A stretch of 64,000 nt of DNA from contig NC_135823.1 in assembly GCF_964213995.1 (NCBI RefSeq), positions 20,832,001 through 20,896,000 of the forward strand. The letters run 5' to 3'. The translations under genes were made by a program, and so were the position numbers. This DNA is from Mustelus asterias (Eukaryota). Below are positions 1,834 through 53,199 of the stretch, in pieces (positions within the stretch are counted from its first letter, which is position 1; every line of letters starts with the position of its first letter). The notes beneath the pieces are model-generated. The model did no database searches and was not told where the DNA came from. It saw only the letters and a list, made by a program, of their open reading frames with translations.

Positions 1834-2024
1834 AAAAGCAAATTACTGCGGATGCTGGAATCTGAAACAGAAAATGCTGGAAAATCTCAGCAGGTCTGAC
1901 AGCATCTGTGGGGAGAGGATAGAGCCAATGTTTCGAGTCTAGATGACCCTTTGGGTGATGAAAGGTCATCTAAACTCGAAACATTGGCTCTATTCTCTCC
2001 CCACAGATGCTGTCAGACCTGCTG
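1834..2024. mobile_element. Short Penelope-type non-autonomous element, fold-back copy
   Basis: About 65-bp near-perfect inverted repeat around 1952-1958; flanking acacttga..tgt direct repeat. Confidence 0.7.
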
Positions 2025-2816
2025 ACACTTGATGTGTCATGCATGCTGTTAGCTCACAGTCAAATAGCAAACTCCTGGGGCCATTTCCTATTGAAAAATA
2101 TTTTTCTCCCCCTTTCCTGCCTCGACCCCACCTGATTAGCACTGCTGCCTCACAGCGCAAGTGTTCAATTCCGGTCTCCACACTGTGTGGAATTTGCATG
2201 TTCTCCCAGTGTCTGGGTGGGTTTCCTCCAGATGCTCCAGTTCCCTCCCACAGTCCAAAGATGTGCGGGTTAGGTTGATTGGCCATGCTAAATTAACCCT
2301 TAGTGTAAGGGAGACTAGCTAGGGTAAATACATGGGGTTATGGGGATAGGGCTTGGGTAGGATTATTGTCAATGCAGGCTTGATGGGGCTGAATGGCCTC
2401 CTTCTGCACTGTAGGGATTCTATGATTCTATCTGATTGGATTTGAATTTAGATCACAAGGTCAAAGAACACTACTGACTTGGCTGCACTCCCCTCATAAA
2501 CGTTTAACAGTAAATGCACTTTATTTAGGAATTTATGTCTTTCCAGTAGATGCATATCCATCCTTGAGCATTTTTTTTTGAAGTAGAGATTTAAATATTA
2601 AGTTTATCTCCAATTCCATAACATCTTTCCCTGCTATGGCTTCACACATGCTTATGGTGAAAGCTCTTATTTATAGTTCATATGACCCTAAATTTGCATA
2701 TTGCCTCCCCTTCTCTTCTCTCTCTCTCTCCCCCAACCCCCCAAAACTAGGGTTTCGATAGGTGTACTTATTAACTTTTGCTTCCAGGATGCTGGAGACA
2801 GAGAAATGAGTTGTAT

Positions 2817-2948
2817 AAAAGCAAATTACTGCGGATGGCGGAATCTGAAACAAAATCAGAAAATGCTGGAAAATCTCAGCAGGTCTGACAGTGTCTGCGG
2901 AGAGAGAAACCGAGCTAATGTTTTGAGTCTGTATGACTCTTTGTCAGA
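2817..2948 (-). mobile_element. Short Penelope-type element (same family)
   Basis: aaaagcaaattactgcggatg...gactctttgtcag; flanked by cagagaaat(g/a)agtt. Confidence 0.7.
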
Positions 2949-3759
2949 GAAATAAGTTATCTCCGGCGTATTGCTGTGCAGTAACACTGCTCCACAATAT
3001 ATCGTTAGACACAACTGGGTACAGTTCACTTATCACTAATCAAATAGAGTAGTAAGGTTCAAATAAAAACACAGCTTATTCAATTATTAACAATGTCAAG
3101 TTGGCTGAGACGGTTGAGGGTTGCTTCTCCCATCTGTCTAAGGAGAGAGAATGGGGAGGACAATGGGTGGAGGAAGCAGGATGTTTTTGCCCTAAGATTG
3201 GATGAGTCATAGAGATGTACAGCACAGAAATGGGCCCTTCGGCCCAACTCGTCCATGCTGACCAGGCTTCCTAAATTGATCTAGTCCCGTTTGGCCCATA
3301 ATCGCACTAAGCCTTTCCCACCCATGTACCTGTCCAAATGTATTTTAAATGTTGTAATTGTGCCCGACTCTACCACCTCCTGGAAGCTTGTTCCATATAC
3401 ACACCACCCTTCTGAAAAAATTACCCCTCGGGTTCCTTTTTAAACCTTCCTGCTCTCACCTTAACCCTATGCCCTCTAGTTTTGGACTTCCCTGGGGAAA
3501 AGACTATGCCTCTTATAAACCTCTATAAGGTTACCCCTCATCCTCCTACGCTCCAGGGGAAAAAAAGTCCCAGCCTATCTGAAAGTATGTTTTGAGGGAT
3601 ACATTTGAATGTACTTTAGGAGACTGATGTGATCTAAATCTTTAACTTGTGGCTCGTATATAAAATGGTAGTCAAAAAAAAATTGTTTGCAAAGTATATT
3701 AATAGTTCCAGGTGTCCTATGGAATAATGAATTAACACGTCAATTGGTGAAGATGTTTT

Positions 3760-4072
3760 CGGCATGGTGGCAGTGGTTGGCACTGCTGCCTCACAGCGCC
3801 AGGGACCCGGGTTCAATTCCTGGCTTGGGTCACTGTCTGTGCGGAGTTTGCATATTCTCCCCATGTCTGTTTCTTTTGGGTGCTCCGATTTCCTCCCACA
3901 ATTCAAAGATGTGCGGGTTAGGTGGATTGGCCATGCTGAATTGTCCTTTAGCGTCAGGGGGGCTAGCTAGGGTAAATGCGTGGGGTTATGGGGATAGGGC
4001 CTGGGTGGGATTGTGGTCGCTGTAGACTCGATGGGCCAAATGGCCCCCTTCTGCACTGTAGGAGTCTATGAT
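3760..4072 (+). mobile_element. HE1-type V-SINE, representative of roughly 28 full or partial copies in the window
   Basis: tRNA-like head (TGGCACAGTGG A box, GGTTCRATTCC B box), V-domain ctgtgtggagtttgcacgttctccccgtgtctgcgtgggtttcctccgg, gattctat tail; other copies near 2130, 5138, 11645, 21387, 25030, 38775, 43362, 44925, 46710, 48515, 49203, 49960, 50325, 52703, 60400, 63253. Confidence 0.9.
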
Positions 4073-4148
4073 TCACATTGTTCCTGAATACATTGTTACA
4101 ATCACAATGTGGGTTTGCATTTGCCTAACATAATATAATTCCCTTCAG

Positions 4149-4245
4149 GAAGAAGGAGTGTCCTTACTGCAGGAAGAAGGTGCGGAGTGTGGCTCGATCC
4201 GTGATACCCATGATCCACAACCTGATTGGTCGATTGATCATGAAG
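4149..4245 (+). CDS. RNF151: RNF151-like exon (end of RING)
   Basis: cttcag|G...AAG|gtaagc, 97 nt, phase-compatible; (E)KKECPYCRKKVRSVARSVIPMIHNLIGRLIMK supplies the last CxxC pair. Confidence 0.9.
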
Positions 4246-4709
4246 GTAAGCTGAGAGTTGAAGTTGTGTGAAGCTAATTGATATCGGCTACAATGGGACC
4301 TGCTTTAAAGAAGCCAGTGCACATCACTGTCATTGGTTTCCGTCCTGTGATTTCCCCCGGTCTTGTTTCTCACATCCGTGAGTGAAGGTGGAAAAATGCT
4401 GAGGAAATTTGCCCGGTGGGGAAGGAGCAAGTAAGAAACTTGCCTGGATAACTGGCTTTCCTGCGTCAATTTTGTTTGTACATTTTAAGGGTTGAAGGGC
4501 AGGTCTTCAGTCTGTCTTTTTTCATTTGGAAAGAAGTCCTAACTCTTTTTTTTGGATTGCGATCAGTGCTCTCAAAACTAGATCGTCGAATTTTGCAGTA
4601 CAAAATTCTGCCATTTGGTCCATCGTTCCCTGTACCAGCTCTTTGAAAATGTGATCCAATCTGTCCCCTCTACTTGCTCTTTGCCTAACCACTCTACACC
4701 ATTTTCCTT

Positions 4710-5110
4710 GAGGGGAGAGATGGTGGTGCAGTGGTAATGCCACTGGATTAGTAACCCAGAGGTCCAGGCTGATGTTCTATGAACGTGGGTTCAAATCCCA
4801 CCGCGACGGCTGGTGGAATTTGAAATTCAGTTAATACGTTTTCTTCTCAAATCTGGAATTGAAAGCTCATCTTAGTAGGAATGACCTTTTCAAAAAGGAA
4901 AACCTATCTGGTTCACAAATGATCTTTAGGGAAGGAAATCTGTTGTCCTTACTTGGTCTGGCCTACATGTGTCCCCAGACCCACAGCAATGTGATTGACT
5001 CTTAACTGCCCTCTGAAAAGGCCTAGTGAGCCATTCGTTCAAGGGCAATTAGGAATGGGCAACAAATGCTGGCCCAGCCAGCGATGCCCACATCCCATGA
5101 ATGACTAATT
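4710..5110 (+). mobile_element. Second tRNA-derived SINE family (also about 805-1160)
   Basis: tggtgcagtggtaatg...gggttcaaatccc head, ggaaggaaatctg...ggtctggcctacatgtg core; tail aagggcaattaggaatgggcaacaaatgctggcc shared with LINE 3' ends in the window. Confidence 0.75.
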
Positions 5111-5468
5111 TTTAACAATTCTCCTGTTTTATTTTTTGGGGGCAGCATGGTGGTTAGCACTGCTGTCTCACCGCCAGGGACCCAGGTTCGATTCCCGGCT
5201 TGGGTCACTGTCTGTGTGGAGTTTGCACGTTTCCCCCGTGTCTGTGTGGGTTTCCTCCCACAGTCCAAAGGTGTGCAGGTTAGGTGGATTGGCCATGTTA
5301 AATTGCCCCTTAGTGCTAGGGGGATTAGCTTAGGGCAAATGCATTGGGGTAAATGGGGATGGGGCCTGGGTGGGATTGTTGTTGGTGCAGACTCGATGGG
5401 CTGAATGGCCTCCTACTCTGTAGGGATTCTATGATAATGGCTCTTGGCTCTCCGCTTCTGTAATGCAG

Positions 5469-5859
5469 TGTGAAAACCTTGTCTATGGTTGCCGGGAGAC
5501 GTTTCCCCTTGAACAGTACACGAGGCATAAAGCTGCTTGCGAATTTAGGATGGTCAGATGCAAGCATGAAGCCTGTACCACCGAAGTCTTTCAGAAGAAC
5601 CTTGCTGCTCATGAACAAGTTTGTGAACATTGGAGCCAGTCTTGCAGAATGGGATGTGGAGCCCAGCTTACCCAGATCCAGCTGGAGGAACACAACTGCT
5701 ACCGGGACGCAAAGAAAAAGTACAAGGAAAAGATAGCTCTTCTCAGAAGTCGGTTGTGCAGGATGCACCATCGCCTGAAGCTATTTGAAGGGATCATTCA
5801 GGATTGGGTCTCGGATGATCACTTGCAGTTTACCGATCCTACTGCCTATGAAGATGATG
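5469..5859 (+). CDS. RNF151: RNF151-like exon (TRAF/SIAH-type zinc fingers and coiled coil)
   Basis: tgcag|TGT...GAT G|gtgagt; CENLVYGCRETFPL...CRMGCGAQL...HNCYRD resembles RNF151 CPLGCGATL...HNCYRE. Confidence 0.9.
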
Positions 5860-5984
5860 GTGAGTAACTATATGGCTCAACACACAATTAATTAGTTACT
5901 TGTGGGTAAAGTTGCAGGAGGGTGGCACAGCCAGTGATGCCCACATTCCATGAATGAATAATGTTTAAATTCTCTCGTTCTTTT

Positions 5985-6300
5985 TGGGGCAGCATGGTGG
6001 CACAGTGGTTAGCACTGCTGCCTCACAGCGCCGCGGACCCAGGTTCGGTTCCCGGCTTGGGTCGCTGCTTGTGCGGGGTCTGCACGTTCTCCCCGTGTCT
6101 GCGTGGGTTTCCTCCGGTTTCCCCGCCACGGTCCAAAAGACGTGCTGGTTAGGTGCATTGACCACACTAAAATTTTCCCTCTGTGTACCCAAACAAGCGC
6201 CAGAGTGTGGCGACTAGGGAATTTTATAGGGGGAGTAACTTCTTTGCAGTGTTAATGTAAGCCTACTTGTGACACTAATGAACAAATAAACTTGAAACTT
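5985..6300 (+). mobile_element. V-SINE variant with alternative 3' tail
   Basis: Same head and core as HE1 but tail gtgtacccaaacaggcgccggagtgtggcgac...cttgtgacactaataaataaactt; also near 7025, 13900, 30760, 34045, 54345, 62545. Confidence 0.8.
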
Positions 6301-9593: not shown

Positions 9594-11235
9594 GATGTGG
9601 GGATGTCGGCGTTGGACTGGGGTAAATACAGTAAGAAGTCTCACAACACCAGGTTAAAGTCCAACAGGTTTATTTGGTAGCACAAGCCACTAGCTTTCTG
9701 AGCACTGCCCCTTCATCAGGTAAATGGGAGTTCTGTTCACAAACAGGGCATATAAAGACACAAACTCAATTTACAAAATAATGGTTGGAATGTGAGTCTT
9801 TACAAGTAATCATGTCTTAAAGGTACAGACAATGTGAGTGGACAGAGAGTTAAGCACACGTTAAAGAGATGTGCATTGTCTCCAGCCAGGACAGTTAGAA
9901 ATGTTGCAAGTCATGGGGGTTACAGATAGTGTGACGTGAACCCAAGATCCCGGTTGAGGCCATCCTCGCGTGTGTGGAACTTCGCTATCAGTCTCTGCTC
10001 AGCGACTCTGCGCTGTTGTGTGTCGTGAAGGCCGCCTTGGAGAACGCTTACCCGAAGATCAGAGGCCAAATGCCTGTGACCGCTGAAGTGTTCCCCAACA
10101 GGAAGAGAACATGCTTTCCTAGTGATTGTCGAGCGGTGTTCATTCATCTGTTGTCGTAGCGTCTGCATTGTCTCCACAATGCACCATGCCTCGGGACATC
10201 CTTTCCTGCAGCGTATCAGGTAGACAACGTTGGCCGAGTTGCAAGTGTATGTACTGTGTACTTGGTGGATGGTGTTCTCACGTGAGACGATGGCATCCGT
10301 GTTGATGATCCGGCACGTCTTGCAGAGGTTGCTGTGGCAGGGTTGTGTGATGTCGTGGTCACTGTTCTCCTGAAGGCTGGGTAGTTTGCTGCGGACCATG
10401 GTCTGTTTGAGGTTGTGCGGTTGTTTGAAGGCAAGAAGTGGGGGTGTGGAGATGAACTTGGCGAGATGTTCGTCTTCATCAATGACATGTTGAAGGCTCT
10501 GGAGAAGATGTCATAGCTTCTCCGCTCCGGGGAACTACTGGATGACGGGTACTCTATCTGCTGTGTCCCATGTTTGTCTTCTGAGGAGGTCGGTGCGGTT
10601 TTTTTGCTGTGCCACAAGCCTGCCACAGCAACCTCTGCAAGACGTGCCGGATCATCGACACGGATGCCATCATCTCACGTGAGAACATCATCCACCAGGT
10701 ACACAGTACATACTCCTGCAACTCGGCCAACTCAACAATCACCAGGCAAGAGTGTTCTCTTCCTGGTGGGGAACACTTCAGCGGTCACAGGCATTCGGCC
10801 TCTGAACTTTGGGTAAGCGTTCTCCAAGGCAGCCTTCACAACGCATGACAGCGCAGAGTTGCTGAGCAGAGACTGATAGCCAAGTTCCGCACACATGAGG
10901 ACGGCCTCAACCGAGATCTTGGGTTCATGTCACACTATCTGTAACCCCCACAACTTGCCTGGGTTTGCAAAATCTCACTAACTGTCCTGGCTGGAGACAA
11001 TTCACACCTCTTTTAACCTGTGCTTAATCCTCTCGCCACTCACATTTGTCTGTACCTGTAAAGACCCGCATTCCAACCATTATTTTGTAAATTGAGTTTG
11101 TGTCTTTAGATGCCCTGTTTGTGAACAGAACTCCCACTCACCTGACGAAGGGGCAGCAAGCACTCCGAAAGCTCGTGGCTTGTGCTACCAAATAAACCTG
11201 TTGGACTTTAACCTGGAGTTGTGAGACTTCTTACT
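9594..11235. mobile_element. Penelope-like element (GIY-YIG endonuclease region and pLTR) in inverted arrangement
   Basis: ORF 9920-10399(-) NVVYLIRCRKGCPEAWCIVETMQTLRQQMNEHR...VGEHF...GLNRDLGF is a GIY-YIG domain; mirrored arm 10609-11235(+); ctatacaatatt at 9582-9593 and 11234-11245. Confidence 0.9.
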
Positions 11236-17584: not shown

Positions 17585-19409
17585 AAGTGTTGGCATTGAA
17601 GTGCTTTTTTCATAAACTCAGCTAAGTATTCTTAAAACATGCTTCCATCACTCTTTGTGAAGAAAAATGAGCATTGACTGACTTTATATGCACATCCCTA
17701 CACTAAGCTGGTATCAATTCTCAATGTGTAGCTACTGCCTAAGGTATTTCAACTTCTAATTACCAGTGAGTTATTTTTCACATGCATGTCACTGGCAAGA
17801 CAAATTCATATTTGCCCACTAAGGTGTTGGTGAGCCACTGCAGATGCAGGTACACCCACAAAGCTGTTCGAAAGGGAGTGCCAGAATTTTCACTCAAAAC
17901 AACTGAAGAGATTATTTGGGAACTTGTGTCTGCTGACCTTGACTTTGTAGGTGGCAAAGGTCATAAGTTTGGGAAGGTGCCTTTTGACGGCTTGATGAGT
18001 TGCTGCAGTCATTGTTGAAGGGAGTGAATGTAGTGGATGGGGCACTGATCAAGCTTGACCTTGATGGTGTCAAGATCCTTGTGCTGTTGGAGCTGCACTC
18101 ATGTGTGGAGTATTCTAACACTCCTAAGATGTGTTTTGGATGGTGGTGGACAGACTCTGGGGAGTCAGGATGTAGTCACGCACTCTGGAACTCTGATTTG
18201 CTCTTGTAGCCACAGTATTTATATGGCTGTTTCGTAAGTATCTGGTGAATGGCAATCCCCAGGATGGTGATGGGGGAATTTAATAATGGCAGTGCCATTG
18301 ACAGGGAGAATACTATGTCACTTGTCAGCTCAAATGTGAATGTTGTCTAGGTTAACTGTTACATTGACTCACCTTGTGTTACTGAACACTTTCCTCTTCT
18401 GACAAGGTCACTGAAGGAACCTCGTGGAATGATTGGCCTCCAACAATCACATCTAACTTACTTTTGTGCGAAGTACAACTTCAAGTGGCACCAACTTCAA
18501 TTTTGCTGGGACCCCTTGATGCCAAAGGCAATCACTCATCTTAGGGTTCTCAATTTGAAAGACTGCATTCATGCAAGCAATACTTAACACACTTCCTACC
18601 GAGTGCAGAAATATTGCAGTATTATGCTTGAGTAGTGCTGTACTCATTTATGATTCACTCCAATAAGATTTCTAACTTTGAAGTCAAGTATCATTTGCTT
18701 ATTAAACATAAATGCTTGAACAGTGAGTGGTTTTTTTAAAAAAAAGTGAATTAAGTTTACAAATTGTGCAGCATTCATACATTATTGGAACTGATATATG
18801 TAAAGCACTTAAAATAACATTGAGAACTGGAACCATGTAAGGAATTTAGTCAAACTTGCCTTGATTGCTTTATTTTACATTAACAGCATTATAGAAATAC
18901 ATAGTTTAAAATAGTACATATGAAAACTTAACAGCCATAAAGTAAACTTCAGATAATTAAAAGGGTTGGAAATCTGGTTAGCAGCACTTGTCAGGGGCAG
19001 AGAAGAGTTAAATAGTTACATCACTTATTTACAGCCTTTATTTTAGTAAAAACTACATATCTCTGTATCCGTGGAGAGAGTTAGTGTTTTGAGTCCTATA
19101 TGCCTAACTTTTATTTCAGATTTTCAGCAGCCACAGTATTTTGATTTTTAAACATATCTTCACAAAACCTGAACAAAGACATTCTAGAAATAAAGGCAGT
19201 GCATGAAGCTTAAAGTGTGGTGCAGCTCAGCTGCCAACCACATTCAGAGGGGCTCAGTGCAAAGTGTGCTGGTTATCTCTCCTCTCTGCCACCCACCCCC
19301 CAAAACCACATCAGCTCTTTGGTCAGTGGTGGACCTGTGACCAAGTAGCTGAGGAAGACAGCCATATTGCCAGTTCTTATAATGCCCATAGGATATGCTG
19401 GGCAGGGGG

Positions 19410-20620
19410 CATGAAGACCCAAGACATTTTATTTATTTTTGGTTGTGATGTACACTTAGCAATGTAGTTTTGTTTTCTCTCATTGCACATAATCTGTTGT
19501 ACCTACAATGAATTTCCACTAAGAAAAAAAAATCATTCTAGTCTTCGGAGCCTAGCTTCGGTTTGGCTGAAAGTTCATTTCCTTATTTGATGCCAGACTT
19601 CTGATTCTAAAGACCATACCTGTAACCGACAACAAAAATTAAATCACAAATTAAAACGCACAACTGCAAGTAAAAAATGCTCTCAAAAAAGGAGTTGTAA
19701 CAAAAGTTATTTATTGGCACACGGGTTTTATTGACCACAAGCAACACAGAAGTGGGCAATAAGCTTTAGTGTGCCTTTTAATGTAGGCACTCTTATCTTA
19801 CCCACAGTAACTAATAATGCTGTTGGTAACTTTCAGAGGGTGCCATGGGTCACACTAGTAACAAGTCTCAACACCGGGTTACTGTCCAACACCGGCATCT
19901 CCACATCATGGGTCACACTACCCAGTTCACAGAGCACATGGCGCCAGGTTCTGAACTAGGTCATTGGTAATAGTGACAATTTCTATAAAATATAGATTAA
20001 TGCCAGGCTCCAGATAGTTATTTGACAGGAGTGGCACTCATTTTAGACATGGCAGATATACCCATGGTCAGCAAAGAAAATGAACTCACTTTGGGGCCAT
20101 GAAGACAGGTTTCACCATTTGCAGGTTGTATTTCCACCCCAATACATTTAAAGTTAACATTTAGAAGACTTTAACCAGGGTATAATTAACACCATCGCTT
20201 TTTAATAAATGTGAAAATTATTTTCTTAATTTCACAAAACATTTCATATTAAAGTGATGGGGAGTTTATTTTGGAATTACAAAACACCTTAGCTTGAAAT
20301 GAACAAAAAAGATGTTTAACAATGTTTTTTGTTGTTAAAAATATACTTTATTTGTAAAATTTTAAAAGGCTGTAATCAGCTACAGTAACTACAACACTTA
20401 CCCCAGCGCACCGTCTTCACTGCCTCTTAAACAGCAGCAAATACTATTTATAGGGCGGTGAAATGCTCACCCTAAATCTGAATAACACAGAAAACAAAGG
20501 CGCTTCTTGAATACGTCTCTAATGATCTATGCACGATCTGGGGTCTGCACTCGCTCTTTGGAAACCCCAGAATCTGAATAATACAGATAACAATGATAAT
20601 GCAGACAGTAAGGGGAAATG
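19410..20620 (-). ncRNA. SNHG9: SNHG9-like non-coding snoRNA host transcript (ends approximate)
   Basis: Minus-strand donor GG|gtaagt at 20401-20396, acceptor ttttgttgtcggttacag| at 19620, AATAAA near 19430; the intron contains an H/ACA snoRNA; divergent from RPS2 exon 1 as in human. Confidence 0.55.
19709..19845 (-). ncRNA. SNORA78: H/ACA box snoRNA, SNORA78 (ACA64)-like
   Basis: Hairpin ggcaccctct...agagtgcc, H box ACATTA (19784-19779), hairpin ggcacac...gtgtgcc with pocket GCT/AAACCC, terminal ATA+3 nt; about 90 nt upstream of a 3' splice site; syntenic with human SNORA78. Confidence 0.8.
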
Positions 20621-23018: not shown

Positions 23019-23126
23019 GAGTCTGAAATCATTGACTTCTTCCTGGGATCAGCATTGAAGGACGAGGTTCTGAAGATCATGCCTGTACAGAAGCAAACTC
23101 GTGCCGGTCAACGTACAAGATTCAAG
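23019..23126 (+). CDS. RPS2: RPS2 exon
   Basis: [36 protein letters not shown]. Confidence 0.98.
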
Positions 23127-23282
23127 GTATGTTTATGCCTGCCTGTTGGCAATTCTTTTAATTCCTCAACCTTTCTTCCGCAGGAAAGAAGTTTGGAACG
23201 GCATTTTAATGACAAACCTTTATCCTGCAGGAAAGAGGTTTGGAACGGCATTTTAATGACCCTCTTTTTAACATCTTTTCAG

Positions 23283-23456
23283 GCTTTTGTTGCTATTGGT
23301 GACTATAATGGACATGTTGGATTGGGTGTCAAATGTTCCAAGGAAGTGGCCACCGCCATTCGCGGAGCCATCATTCTGGCAAAGCTGTCGATCATCCCTG
23401 TAAGGAGAGGCTATTGGGGTAACAAAATCGGAAAGCCTCACACCGTACCATGCAAG
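23283..23456 (+). CDS. RPS2: RPS2 exon (GC donor)
   Basis: [36 protein letters not shown]...PHTVPCK|gcaagt. Confidence 0.97.
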
Positions 23457-23866
23457 GCAAGTACGAATATGGTTGATGTCTACTGTGTGCAGTGGTCAGC
23501 AGTGCATGTGAAGCAAAATAAATACTTTCATTTAACGGGGTTTCAGTATTGACCCTGTAGAAAGAGTATAGAGAATACCTGGTATCGCACAAATAAACAG
23601 CTGCCATGCTTCTTCATTTTGTGCTTTAGCTGCATTCAGTGAAGGAGTAAATCAGTGTTACAGGGTAGCCGATCATGGGAAAACTTAGCAAAATCTGTTC
23701 TGTTTGTATGTGTATTGGTTGGTTCTTCGTTGATGAGAATTGCTTGGAATTTGAACTGCCCAGTAACCGGGTGTCTACTTGGAGAAAATGTTTGAATTGC
23801 ATTTATTTCTGGGGATTCTGTTTTTTGACATGTCTCAATGCTGTAACAATTTCTTAACTTTTCCAG

Positions 23867-24673: not shown

Positions 24674-25531
24674 TGAAAACTTACTTTTCTTTCAGGAACA
24701 TGATTTCTTTCAAAGTGTGAAGAAATTTGAAAATTATTTTCATTTAGTTTGAAGTGATCCTTTGCTTTCACTGTACCACAGCTGCTAATCTGTATTGTAA
24801 CATATCATCAACCTCTTCTTGCTTCTGAGGTCTTGTCCCCTTGTTACAAAAATCTCATCAATCCCCCAGCAACATGGTTTTTTTGTATGAAAATTCGTTG
24901 TGAAATCAACATAACCTGCTTTTCAATTTGCTTCATTGTCTAGCCCATCCCCTTAACAACAAGCCATGATATATGCATTCCTCAAATCCTGGTCCCTTTG
25001 CACATCCTAGATTTTAATTGGTCCACCATTGATGGCACAGTGGTTAGCACTGCTGCCTCACAGCGCCAGGGACCCAGGTTCAATTCCGGCCTCGAATCAC
25101 TGTTTGAGCGGAGTCTGCACATTCCCCCTGTGTCTGTGTGGGTTTCCTCCGGGTGCTCCAGTTTCCTCCCACAGTCCAAAGATGTGCGGGTTAGGTTGAT
25201 TGGCCATGCTAAATTAACCCTAGTGTCAGGGGACTTGGGAGGGTAAATACATAGGGTTACGGAGATAGGGTTTGGGTGGGATTGTGGTCAGTGCAGACTC
25301 GATGGGCCGAATAGTCTCCTGCACTGTCGGGATTCTATGACAGCCGTGCCTTCAGCTTCCTAGCCCTCCGTTCTGGAATTCTCTGCAATCCTCCATGTCT
25401 TGTACCATTTTCTCCTTTGAACAGCTCCTGAAAACCCAATTCTGCTATTATTTCCTTCTGGTTCAGTGTGATTATTTTTGATAATGCTTGTGTGGAGCGG
25501 TTTAGGATGTTTAACTGTTGAAAGTGCTATA

Positions 25532-26735: not shown

Positions 26736-28399
26736 AGCATTTATGCAAAAAATAAAATAAAGATCTGTTGCCCATGATCTTGTGTTTGTCATCTTTTTGC
26801 TTTGGGTAGGACTGGATTTGATGGGGGAAATGCTTTAACAGATCAAAAAATTGGCACTAATGAAGATTGCTGACTCTTCTCATGGCCTGAGCATTTTTAA
26901 TTTTAATGTAAATGTTCCTTCCATCCATACCATCAGCTTGAAATATCAATAATCAATGAACTGTATGCTGCTGATAACCACTTCTATCACTGCCTCAGCT
27001 CAAATCCTCAACCAGGCGTCTGAACTATTGATTGTTATTGCAATGTGCTGCTGATTGGTTGGCCTCCAAACTTGCACTGTTCAAACTTCAGCTCCTAATT
27101 GGGATGCTCCCATTGAGCCATTATCCCTGTCCTCATAACATTGGCTTCTGGGCTGGCATTGTTTTGATTTTAAAATTCTCAGCCTTACCCCTCTGATAGC
27201 ACTGAATAGTCTGAAATGGCATTCTCAGAACTGAGGATTGGATTTGAGGATTGCAAATGTTCCACCTGTTTGAAAAAGCGATTAACTAATAGTTACAGAG
27301 CAGTCAGCCTGAAGTTGGCAGGGAATCTTAAGTGATAGTACAGAACAAAAAACTATGGGGTAATTAAAGCATGTATTAAAGCAAGTATTTGACTAACTAG
27401 ATTATTTGAAGTAGTGATGAGGATTGTGTGGTTGATGGGCATTGGACTTAGGGGTGTGTGTGTGTGAAGTGACCTTAGCAAAACTACAGTCCACAAATTA
27501 CTGGCAGTGTGGGTATACAAAATGGATGGAAAGCAGAGTAGTGGCAAACAGTTGCTTTTCCTGGACTAATACTATAGTGATCCCCAAGAGTCAGCATTAG
27601 AACTACTGTTTCTGATATAAAGACCTGAACTTGGGTGGAGGCAAAATCTGATTCCAAAATGTATGGATGACATGAAACTTGGAAATGCAGTAAACAATGG
27701 GAACCATGGTAATAAACTTCAGGGGATGTAGACAGACTTGTGAAGATTCGCGACATGAAATTTAGTGTAGAGAAGTGTGAATTTTGTTACAAAGAATGAG
27801 TCAATAACAAAGTGAATAATACAATTTTTGAGAATGCATCTCATACTTTGTTTTTTAATGCTCCTGTGAAGTGTCTTGGGATACTTGGATTGAAGGTGAA
27901 CAGAGAGACCTGAGGATGAGTACACAAATCCTCACAGGTGGGAGAATTGGCTGAAAAGCAACCCTCCACTTTATCAAAATATTAACACACGGGAAGTTTG
28001 ATAAACCTTTGCAGAACACTGATTTGGCCTCACCTGGAGTACTGTATCCATTTCTGGACAGCACACTAGGAAGTTATCAAGTCTTGAGAGGGTGCAGATG
28101 AGGATTATTACAATGGCATAACAGATGAAAGACCTCAGTTATCTTGAGAAATTGGGGTTAAATAAAGATGCTCAAAATCAAAGGGTAGAGTTTTTACAAT
28201 CTGATGCATTCTTCAAAGGGTAGCAGAAGCAGGTTGATAATACAATTGCCCCGAAATGGAATTTAATTAAGCGGATAGATTTACCACAGTTGGCACAGGC
28301 ATATCAGACTGAATCAAACATTGAGATTGAGATTGAAAACCTGTTTTAGAACACTTGCATAGTTAATTTCAGCAGCAGATCTCCAGTGATGCTTTCCTG

Positions 28400-28497
28400 G
28401 AAGACAAAGGGTCATCCGGACTCGAAACGTCAGCTCTTTTCTCTCCTTATCGATGCTGCCAGACCTGCTGAGATTTTCTAGCATTTTCTCTTTTGGT
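28400..28497 (+). mobile_element. Short Penelope-type element (same family as 1834)
   Basis: gacaaagggtcatccggactcgaaacgtcagctc...; 14-bp TSD tccagtgatgcttt at 28382 and 28498. Confidence 0.75.
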
Positions 28498-28893
28498 TCC
28501 AGTGATGCTTTGTTTCCTTCTATTGCTAATTGCACAAGGAGTTATTCTTAGGCCTCACCTTTTGATTTATAGACAGTTTTCTGATGTAATTAGGTCTCTA
28601 TAAATATTATGAACAGCAGATCACTTTTCTGGCTGCTGGACAGCAACAGGGTTTGTAATTAAAGACTAAAGAATTCATCACTTCCCTGCACAAGTACAGG
28701 GAAAGACAAAAAACATGTAATCGAAAAACATTATGGGTTATGCACTATTTATTGTTTAACAGGTCCATGTATTTTGTCACATTCATGTGAAATTCAGCAT
28801 TTTTCACAATTTAAAGACATTCAGACTGTACATTATAGGTGAAGGTTTGTCACAAACAAATTTTAAAAATGATTTTCTAGTGGATTGTGGTGC

Positions 28894-40758: not shown

Positions 40759-41241
40759 GGTTATTTTGCAGTTATTCATTTCTTAGATAAAGTTTAAAGA
40801 GTTCACTTTTGCATATCGATCAAAAGGACTTTACATTGCACCTTCCATGGCTTCAGGACTTCTCAAAGTCTCACAACAGATATACATCCTAGCTATGACT
40901 GTAACACTACATTCTGCACTCTCTCGTTTCCTTCTCTATGAATGGCATGTTTTGTCTGTATAGCGTGCAAGAAACAATACTTTTCACTGTATATTAATAC
41001 ATGTGACAATAATAAATCAAATCAAATCAAATCAAAAGATAGTGTACACCACAGCGTAATCACTGTTGTCAGGAGGGAAACAGCCAGTTATGTTCAGCAA
41101 TGTGACAATGTCAGATATTTTGTTTATTAGTGCATTGATGAAGTGATAATTCTTAATTCCAGATATTTTTTATTGACTTCAAATTTCACCATCTGCTGTG
41201 GTGGGATTCAAACTCAGGTCTCCAGAACACTACCTTGGGTC

Positions 41242-41340
41242 AAAAACAGAAAATGCTGGAAAGTTTCAGCAGGTCTGACAGCATCTGTGGAGAGAGAATA
41301 GAGCCAATGTTTCGAGTCAGGATGACTCTTTGTCAGAGCT
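41242..41340 (-). mobile_element. Short Penelope-type element nested in a SINE
   Basis: Same family as 1834; tgggtc direct repeat on both sides. Confidence 0.7.
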
Positions 41341-44189
41341 GGGTCTCTTGGATTACTAGCCCAGTGACAATACCACTACGCCACTGCCTCCTTATGACCA
41401 TGAAACTATCACCAATTGTCATAAAAGACCTATCTGGTTCACTAATGTCCTTTAGGGAAGGAAATCTGCCGTCCTTACTTGGTCTGGCCTACATGTGACT
41501 CCAGAGCCACAGCAACGTGGTTGACTCCTAACTGAAATGGCTTAGTAAGCCACTCAGCTCAAGGGCAATTAGGGATGGGCAACAAATGCTGGCTTTAACA
41601 GTGACACCCACATCCCATGAAAGAAGAAACAAAATTTCCCTTGCTCTTCAAGATAGTGCTCCTTAGAATCTTTTGTGTTCACCCACCCAAGAGGGAAGAC
41701 GGGATCTCGGTTTACATCTCATCAGAAAGACAGCACCTCTGACAGTACAGTACTCGCTCAGTACTGCATTGAACTGTTAGCCTAGAACTTCTGCTCAAAA
41801 TATCCGTTATTGAAAGCAGTGCATTAGTTTCACACTTGACAAAGTTAGCACTTGAATATTTGGTCTTACATGTAAACCAGGGCCTTATCCATAAACCCTC
41901 TTGGGTGCATCTGAAAGATTCTATGGCACCATTTTGAAGAGCATGGGTAGTTATCTTTGGTATCCTGACCGTTATTTATCCCTGAACCAATTCTTCGACA
42001 AAAACAAGTTATCTGATATCATCACAGTGCGTTTTGTGGGAGCTTGCTGTGCACAAATTGGCTGCCGTGTTTCCTTCATCACAGATGTAACGACTCTCAG
42101 CATGCTTTGTAAATGAGACCGTCAACAATTTGAATGTATATTTTTCTGCAGAATATACATAGCTCATGAGGTCCAATGAAGAGCACTCGCCTGAAATGTA
42201 ACCTAATTGGTTCGTTTGTGCTTTTAACAGGCTACAATTTGTAATGGGTTTAACAAACCATTTATCTGTTGCCCCATGATTGACTAGTATCAATGACTCA
42301 AAAGTGCCAGTGAGGAGTTAGTAACTGGAGGAAGCATTGCTTTCCAAAGCTGCCATTATGATCCAGTAAATACTGGCCAGAATTCTCCGGCCATTCAAGC
42401 CCTGTTGCCGCTGCCAGTGAGGATGGAGTATTTGATGCTCAGCCACATTTCTGTTCACTGCAGCGGGACTGGAGCATCCCAGCTGCGAGCGAGGTCGGAG
42501 AATCGGCCCACTGCCTTTTTGTTAACGTGATTTATACTTGTATGTTTAAAAAGATTCATTTTCTACTACATTCAGTCCTCGTGATTCCTTCAGTTAATTC
42601 TCCTAAAATCCCTATACCATTTTCTTAGAGCATTTTAAAGTGAAGGGACACCTTAAAGCACGGAGGCACTGATACCACTGACTGGAAGGAGAAGGCTGTG
42701 GAAGTTCAGCATGACTCCACTGTGTCCACAGCGTCCATCAAGGTGCAAACCACTTCTCAGCTCAGTGAAATGCAGGTTAGGTGGATTGGCCATGCTAAAA
42801 TGCCCGTTAGTGTACCAAGATGTCTATGTTAAATGGATTAGCCATGGTAAATGTGTGGAGTTATGGGGATAGGGTGCAGGAAAGGGCCAGGGTAAGATAC
42901 TCTGTCAGAGAATCGATGCAGACTCGATGGGCTGAATGGCCTCCTTCTGCTCTGGAGGGATTCTATGTCTCCTAGACTAGCCTTCAAGAAGGGAAGAAAT
43001 GGGCTGGGTAAACAGTCATTAATGCTCACAAGTGCCAATTGCAAGGGGATCGACAACAAAACAGGTACCCACATCTGTTTGGACAAGTTTGGGCAATAAA
43101 TGCTGGCCAGCCAGCGATGCCCATGTCCCACAAATGAATTTTAAAAATCCAGAAGTGTTCAGGTTAGGTGAATTGGCTACACTAAATTGCCCCTTAATGT
43201 CCCAAGATGTGTAGGTTAAATGGATTAGCCATGGTAAATGTGTGGAGTTATGGGGATAAGGTGGGGGAGAGGGCATTGGTGCAGACTCGATGGGCTGAAT
43301 GGCCTCCTTCTACACTGTAGGATTTCTGTGATTCTTCTATGAAACATTTCATCACCTTTCATAGAACATAGAATCCCTACAGTGCAGAAGGAGGCCATTC
43401 GGCCCATCGAGCCTACATCGACAACAATCCCACCCAGGCCCTAACCCCATGTAGTTACCCTGCTAATCTCCCTGACACTAAAGGGCAATTTAGCATGGCC
43501 AATCCACCTAACGTGCACATCTTTGGAGTGTGGGAGGAAACTGGAGCACCCGGAGGAAACCCATGCAGACACGGGGAGAATGTGTAGACTCCGCACAGAT
43601 TGTGACCCAAGCCGGGAATTGAACCCGGGTCCCTGGCGCTGTGAGGCAGCAGTGCTAACCACCGTGCTACCGTGCCGCCTCTGAATATTACTTTACGCGA
43701 CTCGGTGTCAAAATGTGTTTGAGAATGGTCATGTAAAGTGCTTTGGGACTTCGAACTATCTTGAAGGTGCTATTAGGTGCTGGTTAGGTGCATTGGCCAT
43801 GCTAAATTCTCCCTCAGTGTACCCGAACAGGCACCAGAGTGTGGCAACTAGCGGATTTTCACAGTAACTACATTGCAGTGTTAATGTAAGCCTGCTTGTG
43901 ACACTAATAAATAAACTTTAAATGCAAATAGTTGCTCTTGAAGTCTGCCAAAAATAAAAAAGGTACATTTTTTCATTAAAACCGTACGGGTGTGTCCGTG
44001 TATGATTTGACAGGACGAAATCCAAGTGATATTTCGAGCGACAGCACTCATGTCATTTGACTGTTATTATTCACTTTATTATTTTCAGGTGGTGATGAAT
44101 CTCATGAGGGGAAAAAGAAGAGTTTTGAAAAGTGGCCAGTGAACATTTGTAATGGAGTAGACAGCTTCAGTGACACCTTGCTCTTTGGT

Positions 44190-44368: not shown

Positions 44369-44371
44369 ATG
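44369..44371 (+). CDS. RPL3L: RPL3L exon 1 (ATG only)
   Basis: cacaccATG|gtacgt, good Kozak context; RPL3-family genes have an ATG-only first coding exon. Confidence 0.8.
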
Positions 44372-44803: not shown

Positions 44804-45269
44804 GTAAGGATTTGGATTATATTACTGTCCCCGCCGTTTGAAAGTCAGCAGCTCCGACGGTGCCGTGCTCGATCAGTAAAGCACTGGAGACCCAGGCCGC
44901 GTAAAGCACTGGAGTGGGAATTATGTGGGACCCAGGTTCAATTCCTGGCCTTGGGTCACTGTCTGTGTGGAGTTTGCACGTTCTCCTCGTGTCTGTGTGG
45001 GTTTCCTCGGGGTGCTCCAGTTTCTTCCCAAAGATGTGTGGATTAGGTGGACTGTCCATGCTAAATTGACCCCAGGGGGATTAGCAGGGTAAATGGGTGG
45101 GGTTACGGGAATAGGGCCTGGGTGGGATTGTGGTCATACAGACTCGATGGGCCAAATGGCCTCCTTCTGTACTGTAGGGATTCTATGATTATCAATCTGC
45201 AGAGTTCTGACTCAGAGTTGAGATAGTGCCACCGACTGAGCTAAAGCTGAATGTATCGTGCTGAAGTCC

Positions 45270-45695
45270 CAGTCCAGAGGGGTGAGCATAGAATCTAGGC
45301 TGACAGTATCCCCGGCAGTACTGAGGGAGTGCTGCACTGCCAGAGTTGCTGATTTTCGCTCCCCCTGACAGTACTGAGGGAGTGCTGCACTGCCAGAGTT
45401 GTTGATTTTAGCTCCCCCCGACAGTACAGAGGGAGTGCTACACTGCCGGAGTTGCTGATTTTCGCTCCCTCTGACAGTACTGAGGGAGTGCTGCACTGCC
45501 AGAGTTGCTGATTTTCGCTCCCCCTGACAGTACTGAGGGAGTGCCACACTGCCGGAGTTGTTGATTTTCGCTCCCCCTGACAGTACTGAGGGAGTGCTGC
45601 ACTGCCGGAATTGCTGTTTTTCAGGTGAGATTTTAAGCGAGGTCCGCTTTGCCATCTCGGGTGGGCACAAAAGATCCTGTGACATTATTTTGGGG
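45270..45695 (+). mobile_element. Deu-domain SINE (SacSINE1/AmnSINE1-like) with internal 53-bp tandem array
   Basis: tctaggctgac...cagtactgagggagtgctgcactg...tttcaggtgaga..taagcgaggtcc core; other Deu-like copies near 31860(+), 41640-41790(-), 29870-30100(-). Confidence 0.7.
45316..45620 (+). repeat. 53-bp minisatellite, 5 full units plus a partial one
   Basis: Units start at 45316, 45369, 45422, 45475, 45528, 45581. Confidence 0.95.
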
Positions 45696-47362: not shown

Positions 47363-50300
47363 GTAATTTTAAAGATTCTCTTTATTTTAGTGTCCCCTCT
47401 CTTGATTAACATGTACAGAGAAATGTGTGTGGATGACTGGTGAAAAGGAGACACGCTGCAAATCTTCCGGCCTCAGGTTGATTTGGTGTCCTGCATCTCC
47501 CTGGAGATGAGGCCTATTTGGACCATTAGACCATAAGATATAGGAGCCAAATTAGGCCATTCGGCCCATCAAATCTACTCCCCCATTCAATCATGGCTGT
47601 TAAGTTTCTCAACCCCATTCTCCTGCCTTTTTCCTGTCGTTTTGATCCCCTCACCAATCAAGAAACTATCTATCTCCATTTTAAATACATTTAATGGCCT
47701 CCACAGCCTTCTGTGGCAGCAAATTCCAGATTCACCACTTCTGGCTGAAGAAATTCTTCCTCGTCTCTGTTCTAAATGGTCGGCCTTTTACTCTGAGGCT
47801 GTGCCTTCAGATCCTAGTCTCTCCAACTAATGGAAACATCTTCCCCATGTCCACTCTATCCAGGCCTTTCAGTATTCTGTAATCCTGGAAAACGAGCAGT
47901 TCTTCGGAACATTGCCCAGAGGCTCAGGAAGGATGTAACAATGGGGGGCGCATTTGACACGTGGTGATGCGGAACTTTAACCTGGAAAACAGAGCGCATG
48001 GGGAGATCGGGAGGCAGGAGCACACCGTGGCACCTAAGCAACAAGGGGCTGATCGAGCAGCAGCTCAGCGACCCTCCTTGAAATACACGACATCATAACA
48101 AGAATGAAGATCTTGTGTCTTCAGTCAAAGATGTTTATGTTTGGACAAATGCTCCATGGAAAACCTTCAACGAGTGAAGGATCAGAAGAGAACATTCGGC
48201 CCATCAAAAGTGGCTGCTCTCCCAACCCAGTATCCAATTGCATTTTGAATCCCCCGAATGTGTTTCACACTTGCCATCTTACTTCAGATTATTCTAGAGG
48301 TTTGCCAACCTTTGAATAAGGAGTCTTAAGGCCCTTCTCTCCCTTGGACTACCAGAGCTTCCAAGGTTTTCTATTGAACATTTCTTGACCAGAGTTACAC
48401 TGTACTTGAGGTCTGGAGGGGTGGGTAACTTCAATGTGAAGGAGTCAAATTCACATTTTTCTAGTATCTAATTTTAAATTAATCTTCAATAATTGAAATT
48501 TATCCCTGTGCCCCACGCGGTGGCCCAGTAGTTAGCACTGCTGCCTCATAGCGCCAGGGTTCGATTCCTGGCTTGGGTCACTGTCTGTGTGGAGTTTGCA
48601 CATTCTCCCCGGGTCTGCGTGGGTTTCCTCCAGGTGCTCCGGTTTCCTCCCACAGTCCAAAGATGTGCGGGTTAGGTGGGTTGGCCATGCTAAATTCTCC
48701 CTTAGTGTCAAGTGGACTAGCTAGGGTAAATACATGGGGTTATGGGGTAGGGCCTGGGTGGGATTGTGGTCGGTGCAGGCTCGATGGGCCGAATGGGTGC
48801 CTTCTGCACTGTATGATTCTAAGTAATATTTTTGTTCTCTATATCTTTGCCTTTCAATTCTTTAACTATATCAATGTGATTTAATCCGAACTCCCCTCAT
48901 AATCTTATCTATTTTTTCTTTCTAGACAGAGGTTAATACCTACTCAGGCAAACTTTTTTTTTCTCGTTCTGACTACCTGAAGTAAGAAGGCCTACACCCT
49001 CACTGGGTTGCACATTTGCATAGCAACAGGAGTAGGCCCATCAGCTGCTCACAGCTGATTGAGACATGACTTTATTGCATGTGGGATGTACAGAATCCAA
49101 AATTGAATATTAAAAAAAAACAAGCCCATGTATGGTACAATGAAAGACTGGACTGTTGCAGGGGCAAGAAGCAAAGCCAGAGAGAGGAAACCAAAATCAT
49201 TTGGTGGCATGGTGGCACACTGGTTAGCACTGCTGCCTCACAACGCCAGGGACCCAAATTCAATTCCGGCCTCGGTCACTGTCTGTGTGGAGTTTGCACA
49301 TTCTCCCCATATCTGTGTGGGTTTCCTCCGGTTTCCTCCCACAGTCCAAAGGTATGAAGGTTAGGTTAATTGGCCATGCTAACTTGACTCTTGGTGTCAA
49401 GGGGATTAGCAGGGTAAATGTGAAGGGTTACAGGAATAGGGCCTGGGTGGGTTTGTGCTTGGTACAGTCTCAATGGGCCGAATGGCCTCCTTCTGCACTG
49501 TAGGGATTCTATGATATTTAGGAAAAGAGAAGTTCCTCACTGACTTGTGGGCGGCCTGGTGGCCCAGTGGTTAGCACTACTGCCTCACAGCATCAGGGAC
49601 ACACATTCAATAGGATGGGGAACACACAGACTTCTGTTAGAGAATGCACATTTGTGGATATTTTTAAACTCATTTCCACTATATGGGCATTGTATGCAAG
49701 ACTATCCTTCATTGCCCGGCTTGGATTACCCTGTGGAATTCACTGCCATAGAGGGCTGCGGAGGCCAGGTCATTGAGTGTCTTTAAGACAGAGATAGATA
49801 AGTTCTTGATCAATAAGGAGATCAAGGGTTACGGGGAGAAGGCAGGAGAATGGGGATGAGAATCATATCAGCCATGATTGAATGGCGGAGCAGACTTGAT
49901 GGGCTGAATGGCCTAATTCTGCTCCTGTGTCTTATGGTCTTATGGTTTGATACAATTTTATGGGCACGGTGGTTAACACTGCTGCCTCACAGCACCAGGG
50001 AACTGTGTTCAATTCCGGCCTCGGGTGACTGTCTGTGTGAAGTTTGCACGTTCTCCCCGTGTCTGGGTGGGTTTCCTCTGAGTGCTCCGGTTTCCTCCCA
50101 CACTCCAAAGATGTGTGGGTTAGATGGATTAGCCAAGGCAACTTGCCCCTTAGTGTCAGGGGAATTAGTGGGGTAAATACGTGGAGTTATGGGGATAGGG
50201 CCTGGATGGGATTGTTGTCTGTGCAGGCTCGATGGGCTGAATGGCTTCCTTCTGCACAGTAGGGATCGTATGATTCTATAACTTCGTAAGACAATCCTGC

Positions 50301-51654
50301 AGGTTTCAGAATCTTACAGCTCCAACATAGAATCATAGAATCTCTACAATACAGAAGGAGGCCATTCGGCCCATCGAATCTGCACCAAACACAACCCACC
50401 CAGGCCCTGTTCCCGTAACCCCACATATTTATCCTGCTAATCCCCTTGACACTAAGGTCAATTTACCATGGTCAATCAACCTAACCTGTACATCTTGGGA
50501 GTGTGGGAGAAAACCGGAGCACCCGGTGGAAACCCACGCAGACACGGGGAGAATGTGCAAATTCCACACAGACAGTGACACAAACCAGGAATCAAACCTG
50601 GGTCCCTGGCGCTGTGAGGCAGCAGTGTTAACCATTGTGCCACCGTGCCATCCATGATGGGGGTGGGGCAGGGAAATGCAGCAAGCCGTTCACTGTGGGT
50701 TGATGAATTCACTGTGGATCCTTCACAGGAAGATCCCATGGACAACCCGTTGGATCGTGTTAACCCTGAGCACAAAGTGTGACAGTAAATTTTTCATTTG
50801 TCTAGGGGATGTGGGCATCACTGGCTGGGCCAGCGTTTATTGATCATCCCTAATGACCCTTGAAATGAATGGCTTGCTGGGACATTTTCAGGGGACATTT
50901 AAGAGTCAACCACATTGTTGTGGGTCTGAAGTCATGTGTAGGCCAGACCGGGTCCTTCCCTGAAGGGAACCAGATGAGTTTTTATGGTTTCATGGTCATC
51001 ATCTTGACTTTTGCTGTGGTAGGATTTGAACCCAGATTCTCAGAGTATTACCGTGGGTGTCTGGATTACTGGTCCAATGACAACACCACTGCGCCACAGC
51101 CTCCCCTTAGATTTAGTATTGGACTTGATTGAATTGGCCAGGCTCCTACATGAAGAATGGGCACTTAAGCAGGATACTAGAGAGCAGCTGGCATCTATGA
51201 AACTCTACCCAGCGTGAATCAGAATCGCCAATGTTCCAAAACCTGGTGGATAATACGTTTACTACAGGTTAGCAGTTGTCCCTCATAAATCAATTAAATC
51301 CCGATTCTGACTCATAGTTAAATTATTTGTTGCATTTTCCAGGACACCTAGTGACCATGGGCATTGTTTTTACACGGGCAAACAGTCTCACAGTAGACAA
51401 GATGGGGCTATAAAATGATGGACTCATCGCTGTCAGATATTGGGCCAGATTAAAAAATGGGCGTCTCAGAAACTGTGTTCATTATTCCACGTAACCTCTG
51501 CCCATAAACTGAAAACATCCAATCGGAAAATCCAGGCATGTGGTATAGATATGGGTGGGACCGTTTTGGTCTTCCGGCTTTGAACTGGATGATTGGTATA
51601 TGTTCAGTGTAGTATATGCCACAGCACATGTCTCGTACCTTCACGTACCACTAG

Positions 51655-51790
51655 GTGTAAGAGCAAGAAGAAAGCCTTTACTAAATACAGCAAGAAATGG
51701 CAGGACGAAGCGGGGAAAAAACAGCTCGACAAAGATTTTGAAGCCATGAAGAAGTATTGCAAAGTCATCAGAGTCATCGTCCACACTCAG
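51655..51790 (+). CDS. RPL3L: RPL3L exon 4
   Basis: [45 protein letters not shown]. Confidence 0.96.
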
Positions 51791-53068
51791 GTGGGAACTG
51801 TTCTCTTTCTTCATTTTCCATATTTATCTTTCCCATGTCTAGCCACTCATATTTATAATGCACATTCCACAACAGGGAGCAGAGTAGGTATGATTCTCAT
51901 GCAGTGCTGCACAATAGGCTGCCTACATAGCACTTAGAGGTTTGCAGCATGGAAACAGGCCCTTCGGCCCAACTTGTTCATGTTGCTCAGTTTTTAATCA
52001 CGAAGCGAGTCCCAGTTGCCCGCATTTGGCCCATTTCCCTCTATACCCATCTTATCCATGTGACTGTCTAAATGCTTTTTAAAAGACAAAATTGTACCCG
52101 CCTCTACTACTACCTCTGGCAACTCACCACCCTCTGTGTGAAAAAATTGCCCCTCTGGGCCTTTTTGTATTTCTCCCCTCTCACCTTAAACCAATGACCT
52201 TTAGTTTTAGACTCTCCAGGCATGGAGAGTCTGAGGGATTGTGGGGTGATGAGGGTGCTAACATTAAGGCTTGGTTGACATCATTATCAGCACCATTATG
52301 ATTAGCAAAAATGGTAGCTGAGAAATTGGTTAAAATGTTAATCCCTTGCAGACAGTGGGCAGGATGTTCCTCCTCTCCGCGGCGTGATTGGAGGTGGTGG
52401 GAGGTGGTGTGCCCTTCACTGGTGGTGGGATCTTATGGTCCTGCTGTTGTCAACGAGGTTTCCCGTTGAATACACCCCTCACTTCCGGGAAACCCATGGT
52501 GGGAGTGTGCGTCGGCAAGAACGCCAGCAAGATTCCGGCCTGTATGTTTGAAATGGAACCTATCCTTTACATTTTATGTACAGCTGCTAAATGTTAAGTG
52601 AACGCAATCAGATTACAATTCGTATTCGGTTACTGTTCATTGGCATTTCATTCTGAATTTGTGCTCACAAGTATTATCTATGAACAGCATAAACTTCAAA
52701 CTTTGGGCGGCACGGTGGCACAGTGGTTAGCACTGCTACCTCACAGCACCAGGGACCTGGGTTCGATTCCCGGCTTGTCTGTGCAGAGTTTGTACATTCT
52801 CCCCGTGTCTGCGTGGGTTTCCTCCGGGTGCTCCGGTTTCCTCCCACAGTCCAAAGATGTCCGGGTTAGGTGGATTGGCCATGCTAAATTGCCCCTAGTG
52901 TCAGGGGGACTAACTAGGGTAAATGCATGGGGTTATGGGGATAGGGCCTGGGTGGGATTGTGGTCGGTGCAGACTTGATGGAGGCCGAATGGCCTCCTTT
53001 TGCACTGTTGAATTCTATGATTCAACTCTTGTACAGCTTAGCAACAGCACTGATTTGCTCTTAGGATT

Positions 53069-53199
53069 AAAGCATGAAAGCAAATTACTGCGGATGCTGG
53101 AATCTGAAACCAAAGAGAAAATGCTGGAAAATCTCAGCAGGTCTGGCAGCATCTATAAGGAGAGAAAAGAGCTGATGTTTTGAGTCCGGATGACCCTTT
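53069..53199 (-). mobile_element. Short Penelope-type element (same family as 1834)
   Basis: 15-bp TSD tttgctcttaggatt at 53054-53068 and 53197-53211. Confidence 0.75.

Follow-up and report, generated by a model that had tools for sequence, protein, structure and literature searches.

Short copies of a terminal repeat in the window

The stretch of Mustelus asterias DNA analysed here (64 kb of contig NC_135823.1, hereafter the window; genome, 3.68 Gb) harbours five short repeats, near 1834, 2817, 28400, 41242 and 53069, whose family carries a hammerhead-ribozyme-like motif at one end. To judge from their sequence, the short repeats are dead short copies of the terminal repeat (pLTR) of a Penelope-like element (PLE) of the Neptune type, an element with reverse transcriptase (RT) and GIY-YIG endonuclease, and in the genomic arms sampled their 5′ ends concentrate on a single base at the edge of the hammerhead.

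An earlier note on this DNA had described at least five copies, each with its own direct repeat of 6-15 bp, and a hammerhead layout; copies, target-site duplications (TSDs) and layout are confirmed as real. The five copies and a remnant at 55635 align to one another with 78-94% identity (blastn), exact direct repeats of 6-15 bp surround all five insertions, and the motifs quoted at 41301-41340 and 28403-28436 read exactly as given there. Two subfamilies are present, A at 28400 and 53069 and B at 1834, 2817 and 41242 (Table 1; family positions are counted along the hammerhead strand, with hammerhead C17 as 0). The copy at 1834 is genuine and has its TSD, but it is one arm of a head-to-head pair and not a single element. 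The presumed remnant near 19060 is an old fold-back, whose plus-strand tail arm scores above 500 of 500 shuffles and whose minus-strand arm is borderline; the one at 55635 aligns with the family but has no direct repeat of at least 5 bp at its flanks. Genome-wide, a TSD of at least 8 bp borders 17 of 38 short subfamily-A arms, versus 13 of 1,400 mismatched flank pairs.

The short-repeat module is represented by 67 arms in a 1.4-Mb sample spaced evenly over the genome, and exact 20-mer matches genome-wide number 6,752 for subfamily A and 5,950 for subfamily B. Tallies leave out the window's own loci (L001, L051 and L101) and duplicated loci (L012, L067 and L068).

Table 1. Features of the window, with strand and family positions where assigned
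Feature	Position in window	Strand	Remarks
TSD of the 1834 head-to-head pair	1821-1828 and 2025-2032		exact 8-bp core
Subfamily B arm	1833-1953	-	spans -26 to +100 of the family; 3′ end of the long type, tailed; lacks core bases U3-A6
Inverted partner arm, same insertion as 1833-1953	1956-2025	+	from about -29; short 3′ end
Subfamily B solo copy (2817)	2815-2949	-	-32 to +101; core C3·A8 and G12>A, each at a CpG site
Repeat of the 2817 copy	at 2799 and 2945		9 bp, exact
P2 insertion	9596-11235	-	inverted pLTR arms; GIY-YIG-type frame at 9920-10510
Old diverged fold-back remnant (19060)	19063-19151	.	tail arm is plus-strand, head arm is minus-strand and weak
Direct repeats bordering the 19060 remnant	19055 and 19152		8 bp
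H/ACA small nucleolar RNA ACA64	19709-19841	-	67.7 bits, over the Rfam gathering score
Subfamily A solo copy (28400)	28396-28497	+	begins with 7 unrelated bases, followed by -28 (G5) to about +66; 3′ end of the short type; U3 and U4 absent
TSD of the 28400 copy	28382-28395 and 28498-28511		14 bp
Subfamily B solo copy (41242)	41242-41340	-	-34 to +65; 5′ start at helix I; core C3·A8; helix III palindrome broken (CpG decay)
TSD of the 41242 copy	41236-41241 and 41340-41345		6 bp
Predicted minimal type I hammerhead layout	41302-41340	-	helix I (4 bp), core, one additional base, helix II (5 bp), GAAA; without intramolecular helix III
Tandem array	45263-45675		53-bp period, about eight units
Subfamily A solo copy (53069)	53069-53196	-	about -26 to +101; lacks the core; G12>A
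TSD of the 53069 copy	53054-53068 and 53197-53211		15 bp
Older diverged fragment (55635)	55635-55686	+	+17 to about +65

The hammerhead motif

In its predicted layout the motif is a minimal type I hammerhead of the PLE kind, as had been claimed and as confirmed at 41302-41340. A minimal-hammerhead descriptor gave 49 matches in 1.46 Mb and none on the reversed sequence; 48 of them belong to P2, a second Penelope-like family described below, and one to subfamily A. Neither the window nor any of three longer loci gave a match to the Rfam hammerhead models, but since minimal PLE motifs evidently fall below the score of these models, this result is not evidence against a hammerhead. Compared across families, helix I occurs as GCU/AGC, CAC/GUG and CAU/AUG and helix II in several paired versions, a compensatory pattern that keeps both helices. 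Between subfamilies A and B alone, by contrast, the helix changes are one-sided and the 3-8 pair is changed on both sides, in a plain comparison of the sequences.

The A that the earlier note saw at core position 8 is indeed there, but it does not make a novel core in which C3 faces A8. In subfamily A it belongs to a covariant U3-A8 pair, present in 50 of 58 arms and, among exact genome-wide matches, in 6,752 versus 287 with U3-G8; the latter might represent a branch that lies between the two paired cores, or else A/B chimeras. Within the first 100 of the 5,950 subfamily-B matches, counted by hand, C3-G8 is found in 71, and positions 7-8 read CG in 40, TG in 31, CA in 27 and TA in 2. Given this symmetric pattern, C3·A8 in subfamily B is explained by CpG decay from a C3-G8 core of the canonical kind. 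The palindrome at 15.1-16.1, suited to a dimeric helix III, also held in the family: it reads ACGU in 40 of 58 subfamily-A arms, the others showing CpG decay, but is broken in the window copies 1834, 2817, 41242 and 53069. None of the five window copies retains an intact core, bases having been lost through truncation or CpG decay. As a monomer, the family motif is assigned -8.3 kcal/mol for the hammerhead helices versus -9.8 kcal/mol for a fold that pairs core bases.

Connection to an RT and GIY-YIG element

The Penelope origin that had been proposed for the repeats was borne out by long copies, in which the module is joined to an open reading frame (ORF) of the RT and GIY-YIG type. In locus L008 the connection to the ORF end runs through a pyrimidine-rich 3′ untranslated region. 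This junction stretch, used as a query, gave 41 matches, and at 30 further loci examined the module is likewise joined to the ORF end, with shared sequence whose upstream reach varies between a few bases and over 1.5 kb. Loci L232 and L234 have 2.9 kb in common, including the DKG and YRYIDD motifs, a linker of the form Cx4CxxC and a C-terminus of GIY-YIG type; DKG and YRYIDD lie upstream of the module in both and in L073, recognized by eye against the motifs named in PMC8557442. The linker reads CNRRRCNTC and the endonuclease motif YCIRC...LLYIG. Pfam support is weak, with E=0.021 for GIY-YIG (PF01541), short of the cut-off of that model, and a decayed RT piece matched nothing in Pfam or PDB searches; the Penelope assignment therefore rests on motifs and architecture, and the probable placement in the Neptune clade on the linker motif. 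For subfamily B, the link to a related ORF is provided by L130, with 73% amino-acid identity to the subfamily-A ORF piece. Since the module is also found upstream, joined to the ORF leader in five loci (L248, L250, L251, L252 and L254), it is the pLTR. A Neptune-type architecture is present, with a pLTR at both ends, an inverted 5′ copy, an optional tail and a TSD.

The short copies had also been thought to be moved in trans by the GIY-YIG family of the window, which we call P2. The P2 insertion has its own canonical hammerhead near 11140-11180. Its pLTR differs from that of the short repeats, and its endonuclease region is 28-33% identical in amino acids to that of subfamily A; P2 is not the source of the short copies, and their mobilisation by it is not supported. 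A Pfam search with the GIY-YIG frame of the window returned no match, and no subfamily-A body sequence was found inside the 64 kb. P2 is the commoner family, with 135 pLTR arms in 1.4 Mb, a canonical C3-G8 hammerhead and two 3′ ends about 33 nt apart. Pieces of the two Penelope families abut directly at several places (L034:3200-3360 and 9747-9963; L206:7894-8190; L003:1082-1250; L069 near 830-900), as if one insertion had used both RNAs or one family targeted the other.

Fixed ends of the short copies

The 3′ ends lie at about +65 or +101, the stubs being the first 100 or 135 bases of the pLTR, and the TSDs measure about 6-18 bp. The 5′ ends concentrate at -34, the first base of helix I, which agrees with the initial claim that copies start at or inside the hammerhead motif. 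Among the 28 best matches, a set chosen by likeness to a window copy, 24 end at -30 to -45. Of the first 61 exact subfamily-A matches, taken consecutively on contig C1, 38 arms end at -34, 12 of them solo and 26 belonging to inverted pairs, while the remaining 23 comprise five that were inspected and continue and 18, uninspected, that have the next five family bases and were counted as continuing. Nineteen loci contain the 5′ part of the ORF; seven of them reach the upstream pLTR, and three of these seven (L248, L251 and L252) start at -34. Upstream of this position, TATAAA is found at a distance of exactly 30 nt in 18 of 22 long subfamily-A copies, and subfamily-B copies keep the same spacing despite a different 23-nt spacer. 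Contigs of four runs that we guessed to be RNA cover the module, with 20 loose ends at -34 in one run, although contigs can display neither starts nor circles.

In head-to-head insertions the tail occurs on exactly one arm in 22 of 23 cases and on both arms in none, and fold-back junctions through AGCT were observed directly. At the junctions of L015, L028, L287 and L311 the first 8-15 bases are reiterated at the 5′ side, which suggests that snap-back or a template jump happened repeatedly at the end of the RNA. Locus L014 (around 1376-1626) contains a head-to-head stub with a 13-bp TSD inside the RT-coding region of a Penelope-like copy.

A probable run-off origin of the stubs

We consider it likely that the stubs are complementary DNAs (cDNAs) primed at two internal sites of the RNA of the Penelope-like element and running off its 5′ end. 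A promoter with TATA and initiator (Inr) motifs in the pLTR would start transcription at -34; the enzyme of the element would then nick the target and prime at +65 and/or +101, close to the 5′ end of the RNA, and reverse transcription would stop at -34, yielding a product like the 'strong-stop' DNA. Priming on both nicked strands would give two cDNAs that join, often through the self-complementary AGCT, into fold-backs. The dominant template would be uncleaved RNA, and the hammerhead would head the stubs only owing to its place at the RNA start. As the stubs are without TATA box, they would be dead ends and not templates transcribed anew.

Several of these steps have counterparts elsewhere. 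The Anolis protein primes internally at two adjacent sites and requires the RNA downstream of them, extends both target strands and uses unprocessed RNA as its main substrate (PMC11167929), and putative TATA and Inr motifs have been reported in rotifer pLTRs (PMC3846280). Because RNA 3′ of the priming sites is needed by the Anolis protein and, in a single full-length element, would follow them only after the upstream pLTR, a run-off cDNA of 100 or 135 nt would be expected, provided that the requirement holds across clades. More broadly, and with somewhat less than even confidence, we suggest that the stubs could form a genome-wide fossil record of a Penelope 'strong-stop' step, in which the RNA starts on the first hammerhead base, priming takes place 100 and 135 nt downstream on opposite target strands and most events finish at the RNA 5′ end, longer copies needing a jump onto the 3′ pLTR or else a tandem transcript, in the manner of LTR (long terminal repeat) elements.

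A number of observations weigh against a run-off origin. Among the seven copies that reach the upstream pLTR, two run past -34 and two begin downstream of it. The ratio from exact matches is weak, the next five bases being kept in 33% (2,243/6,752) and the following five in 49% (1,094/2,243); as this control was too close, the ratio was dropped as a measure of the stop and replaced by the direct inspection of arms. The 20-mer selects arms that contain AGCT, so starts at -33 to -30 go uncounted, and at perfectly palindromic junctions a start at -32 is indistinguishable from one at -34. The base preceding -34 shows no excess of a cap-derived G (A4 G3 T3 C2), and RNA starts are not visible, the RNA data being contigs only. 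In P2, too, 5′ ends accumulate at the hammerhead edge, with 16 of 135 arms within 10 nt versus 10 in the 90 nt upstream, and this pile-up includes a subfamily without TATA-like box at that place, which fits a structural stop too. Finally, the biochemistry of PMC11167929 was obtained with a Poseidon element, from another clade than the Neptune type, and the Drosophila virilis Penelope promoter is TATA-less and located upstream of an intron (PMC2377424).

Alternative explanations

The main rival, which we hold to be unlikely, is that -34 marks a strong block to reverse transcription (the folded hammerhead, a bound protein or the pyrimidine tract) within an RNA of the same autonomous source that continues upstream, the stubs then being ordinary copies of the 3′ pLTR that were truncated 5′ at a hot spot. 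It would account for a stop that falls on helix I's outer edge in all three of A, B and P2, whatever sequence lies upstream, as well as for the arms, up to 23 of 61, that pass -34. An enzyme travelling 3′ to 5′ on the RNA, however, reaches helix I at +4 and not at -34, the hammerhead is weakly stable as a monomer, and TATAAA is kept at exactly 30 nt over two different spacers.

A separate short non-autonomous master, retrozyme- or SINE-like (short interspersed nuclear element), transcribed and moved in trans, would provide a defined 5′ end and the high copy number given by the exact matches; besides, among 13 subfamily-A arms of at least 86% identity in 1.4 Mb only one extends far upstream. 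We nevertheless find this explanation quite improbable. The majority base is the same at 116 of 116 positions in 38 short and 32 long subfamily-A arms, so the short class has no private variant, and divergence is equal in the two (3.9% and 3.5%, respectively). No repeated array appeared among 138 arms in 180 loci sampled from 3.68 Gb, where six same-strand neighbour pairs lie within 400 nt, and head-to-tail tandem units each with a hammerhead were not seen there. Moreover, the stubs have no TATA box, and near-full-length copies begin at the same base. The retrozyme-like family of its own, as which the repeats had been presented, was rejected on the absence of diagnostic positions (0/116) relative to the long ORF-linked arms and of tandem arrays.

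Self-cleavage of the ribozyme after C17 is a far weaker candidate for what sets the template's 5′ end, and we give it hardly any credence. Indeed, 62 exact subfamily-A matches apparently begin at +1, and 14 of 30 such cases inspected are joined to the opposite arm at that point, but neighbouring offsets are similar (59 at +3 and 32 at -1) and none of the 30 is a solo start, 18 being inverted junctions, mostly via AGCT microhomology, and 12 small deletions or substitutions in copies that continue. The main peak lies 35 nt upstream and takes in the whole ribozyme. Mapping of 5′ ends relative to the cleavage site, as the earlier note had advised, thus gave a fixed start at -34 and, in these subfamily-A offsets and inspected cases, no footprint of cleavage at +1. 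As for circular RNA, among the back-joints listed for the contigs of the guessed-RNA runs (28 others are unlisted) none joins C17 to +1.

A 5′ end set by a splice acceptor deserves equally little belief: a pyrimidine tract with YAG is found in subfamilies A and B and in D. virilis the intron stops at the point where helix I begins (PMC4209133), yet the 12 solo stops were chosen for containing AG itself, such copies being common, starts at -34/-33 outnumber those at -32 in a set not chosen for AG, and the upstream flanks have no exon sequence in common.

Comparison with known elements

The minimal hammerheads described in the pLTRs that PLEs carry (Cervera and De la Pena 2014, PMC4209133) share with the present motif the type I layout, the extra base between 9 and 10.1, the G10.1-C11.1 pair and the palindromic 15.2/16.2, and they too are mostly solo motifs from truncated copies, with opposite-strand pairs. 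A covariant U3-A8 core was reported there in Cercyon of S. mansoni. The accessible parts of that paper contain no sharks and no map of copy ends, whereas we describe a young vertebrate subfamily fixed for U3-A8 with copies that begin at helix I.

Neptune-type EN+ PLEs (Craig et al. 2021, PMC8557442; Arkhipova et al. 2013, PMC3846280) likewise combine an RT with DKG, the Cx4CxxC linker and, at the C-terminus, a GIY-YIG domain, and display heavy 5′ truncation, an inverted 5′ copy, a 30-40 bp tail at one end only, TSDs and putative TATA and Inr motifs in the pLTR. Not described in the accessible passages on them are the fixed 5′ stop at the hammerhead edge and the majority class of stubs of 100 or 135 nt that mark the present family. 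The Anolis Poseidon element PAc, studied in vitro (Frangieh et al. 2024, PMC11167929), resembles it in having two neighbouring internal priming sites by which the tail is defined, in the extension of both strands and in insertion that does not need cleavage. It differs in clade, in an ORF that starts in stem II and in the lack of strand preference between the sites in vitro, while here the tail site served a single arm in 22 of 23 pairs. Animal non-LTR retrozymes (bioRxiv 10.64898/2026.07.22.740005; PMC7229834) are similarly non-coding, pLTR-related and dispersed as monomers with a type I hammerhead, and the preprint records them in one chondrichthyan of its survey. Retrozymes, however, are defined there by tandem units that each contain a hammerhead; no such units were seen here, and the sequence is no different from that of the autonomous element.

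The element type, its hammerhead, U3-A8, solo motifs, inverted pairs, the tail, one-sided tails and TATA motifs in the pLTR are already published. For a fixed 5′ stop at helix I, or for the present family, no paper was found in the literature searched, which comprised few subscription journals and neither Repbase, Dfam nor the supplement of PMC11167929, whose Fig. S2 on the coverage of genomic copies may already show a 5′ pile-up. The fixed 5′ end is a single testable mechanistic hint from an otherwise ordinary element. Questions in the Penelope replication cycle include the RNA start, the role of the hammerhead and the origin of tandem and inverted forms, and here young copies in their thousands, each of whose ends falls at set places (the 5′ end 30 nt behind a TATA box, the 3′ end at one of two sites) and whose tails are one-sided, offer precise predictions for the existing in vitro system.

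Other features of the window

Three exon-like frames (5424-5867, 23019-23552 and 51593-51937) belong, as we assume from their look, to a TRAF-type zinc-finger protein, ribosomal protein S2 and ribosomal protein L3, respectively. Together with the ACA64 gene they remind us of what is presumably a conserved vertebrate gene cluster. Among the repeats of the window, SINE-like elements headed by a tRNA, about 300 bp long and very abundant, dominate (e.g. 2113-2430, 25034-25340 and 49963-50274), and a tandem array is also present (Table 1).

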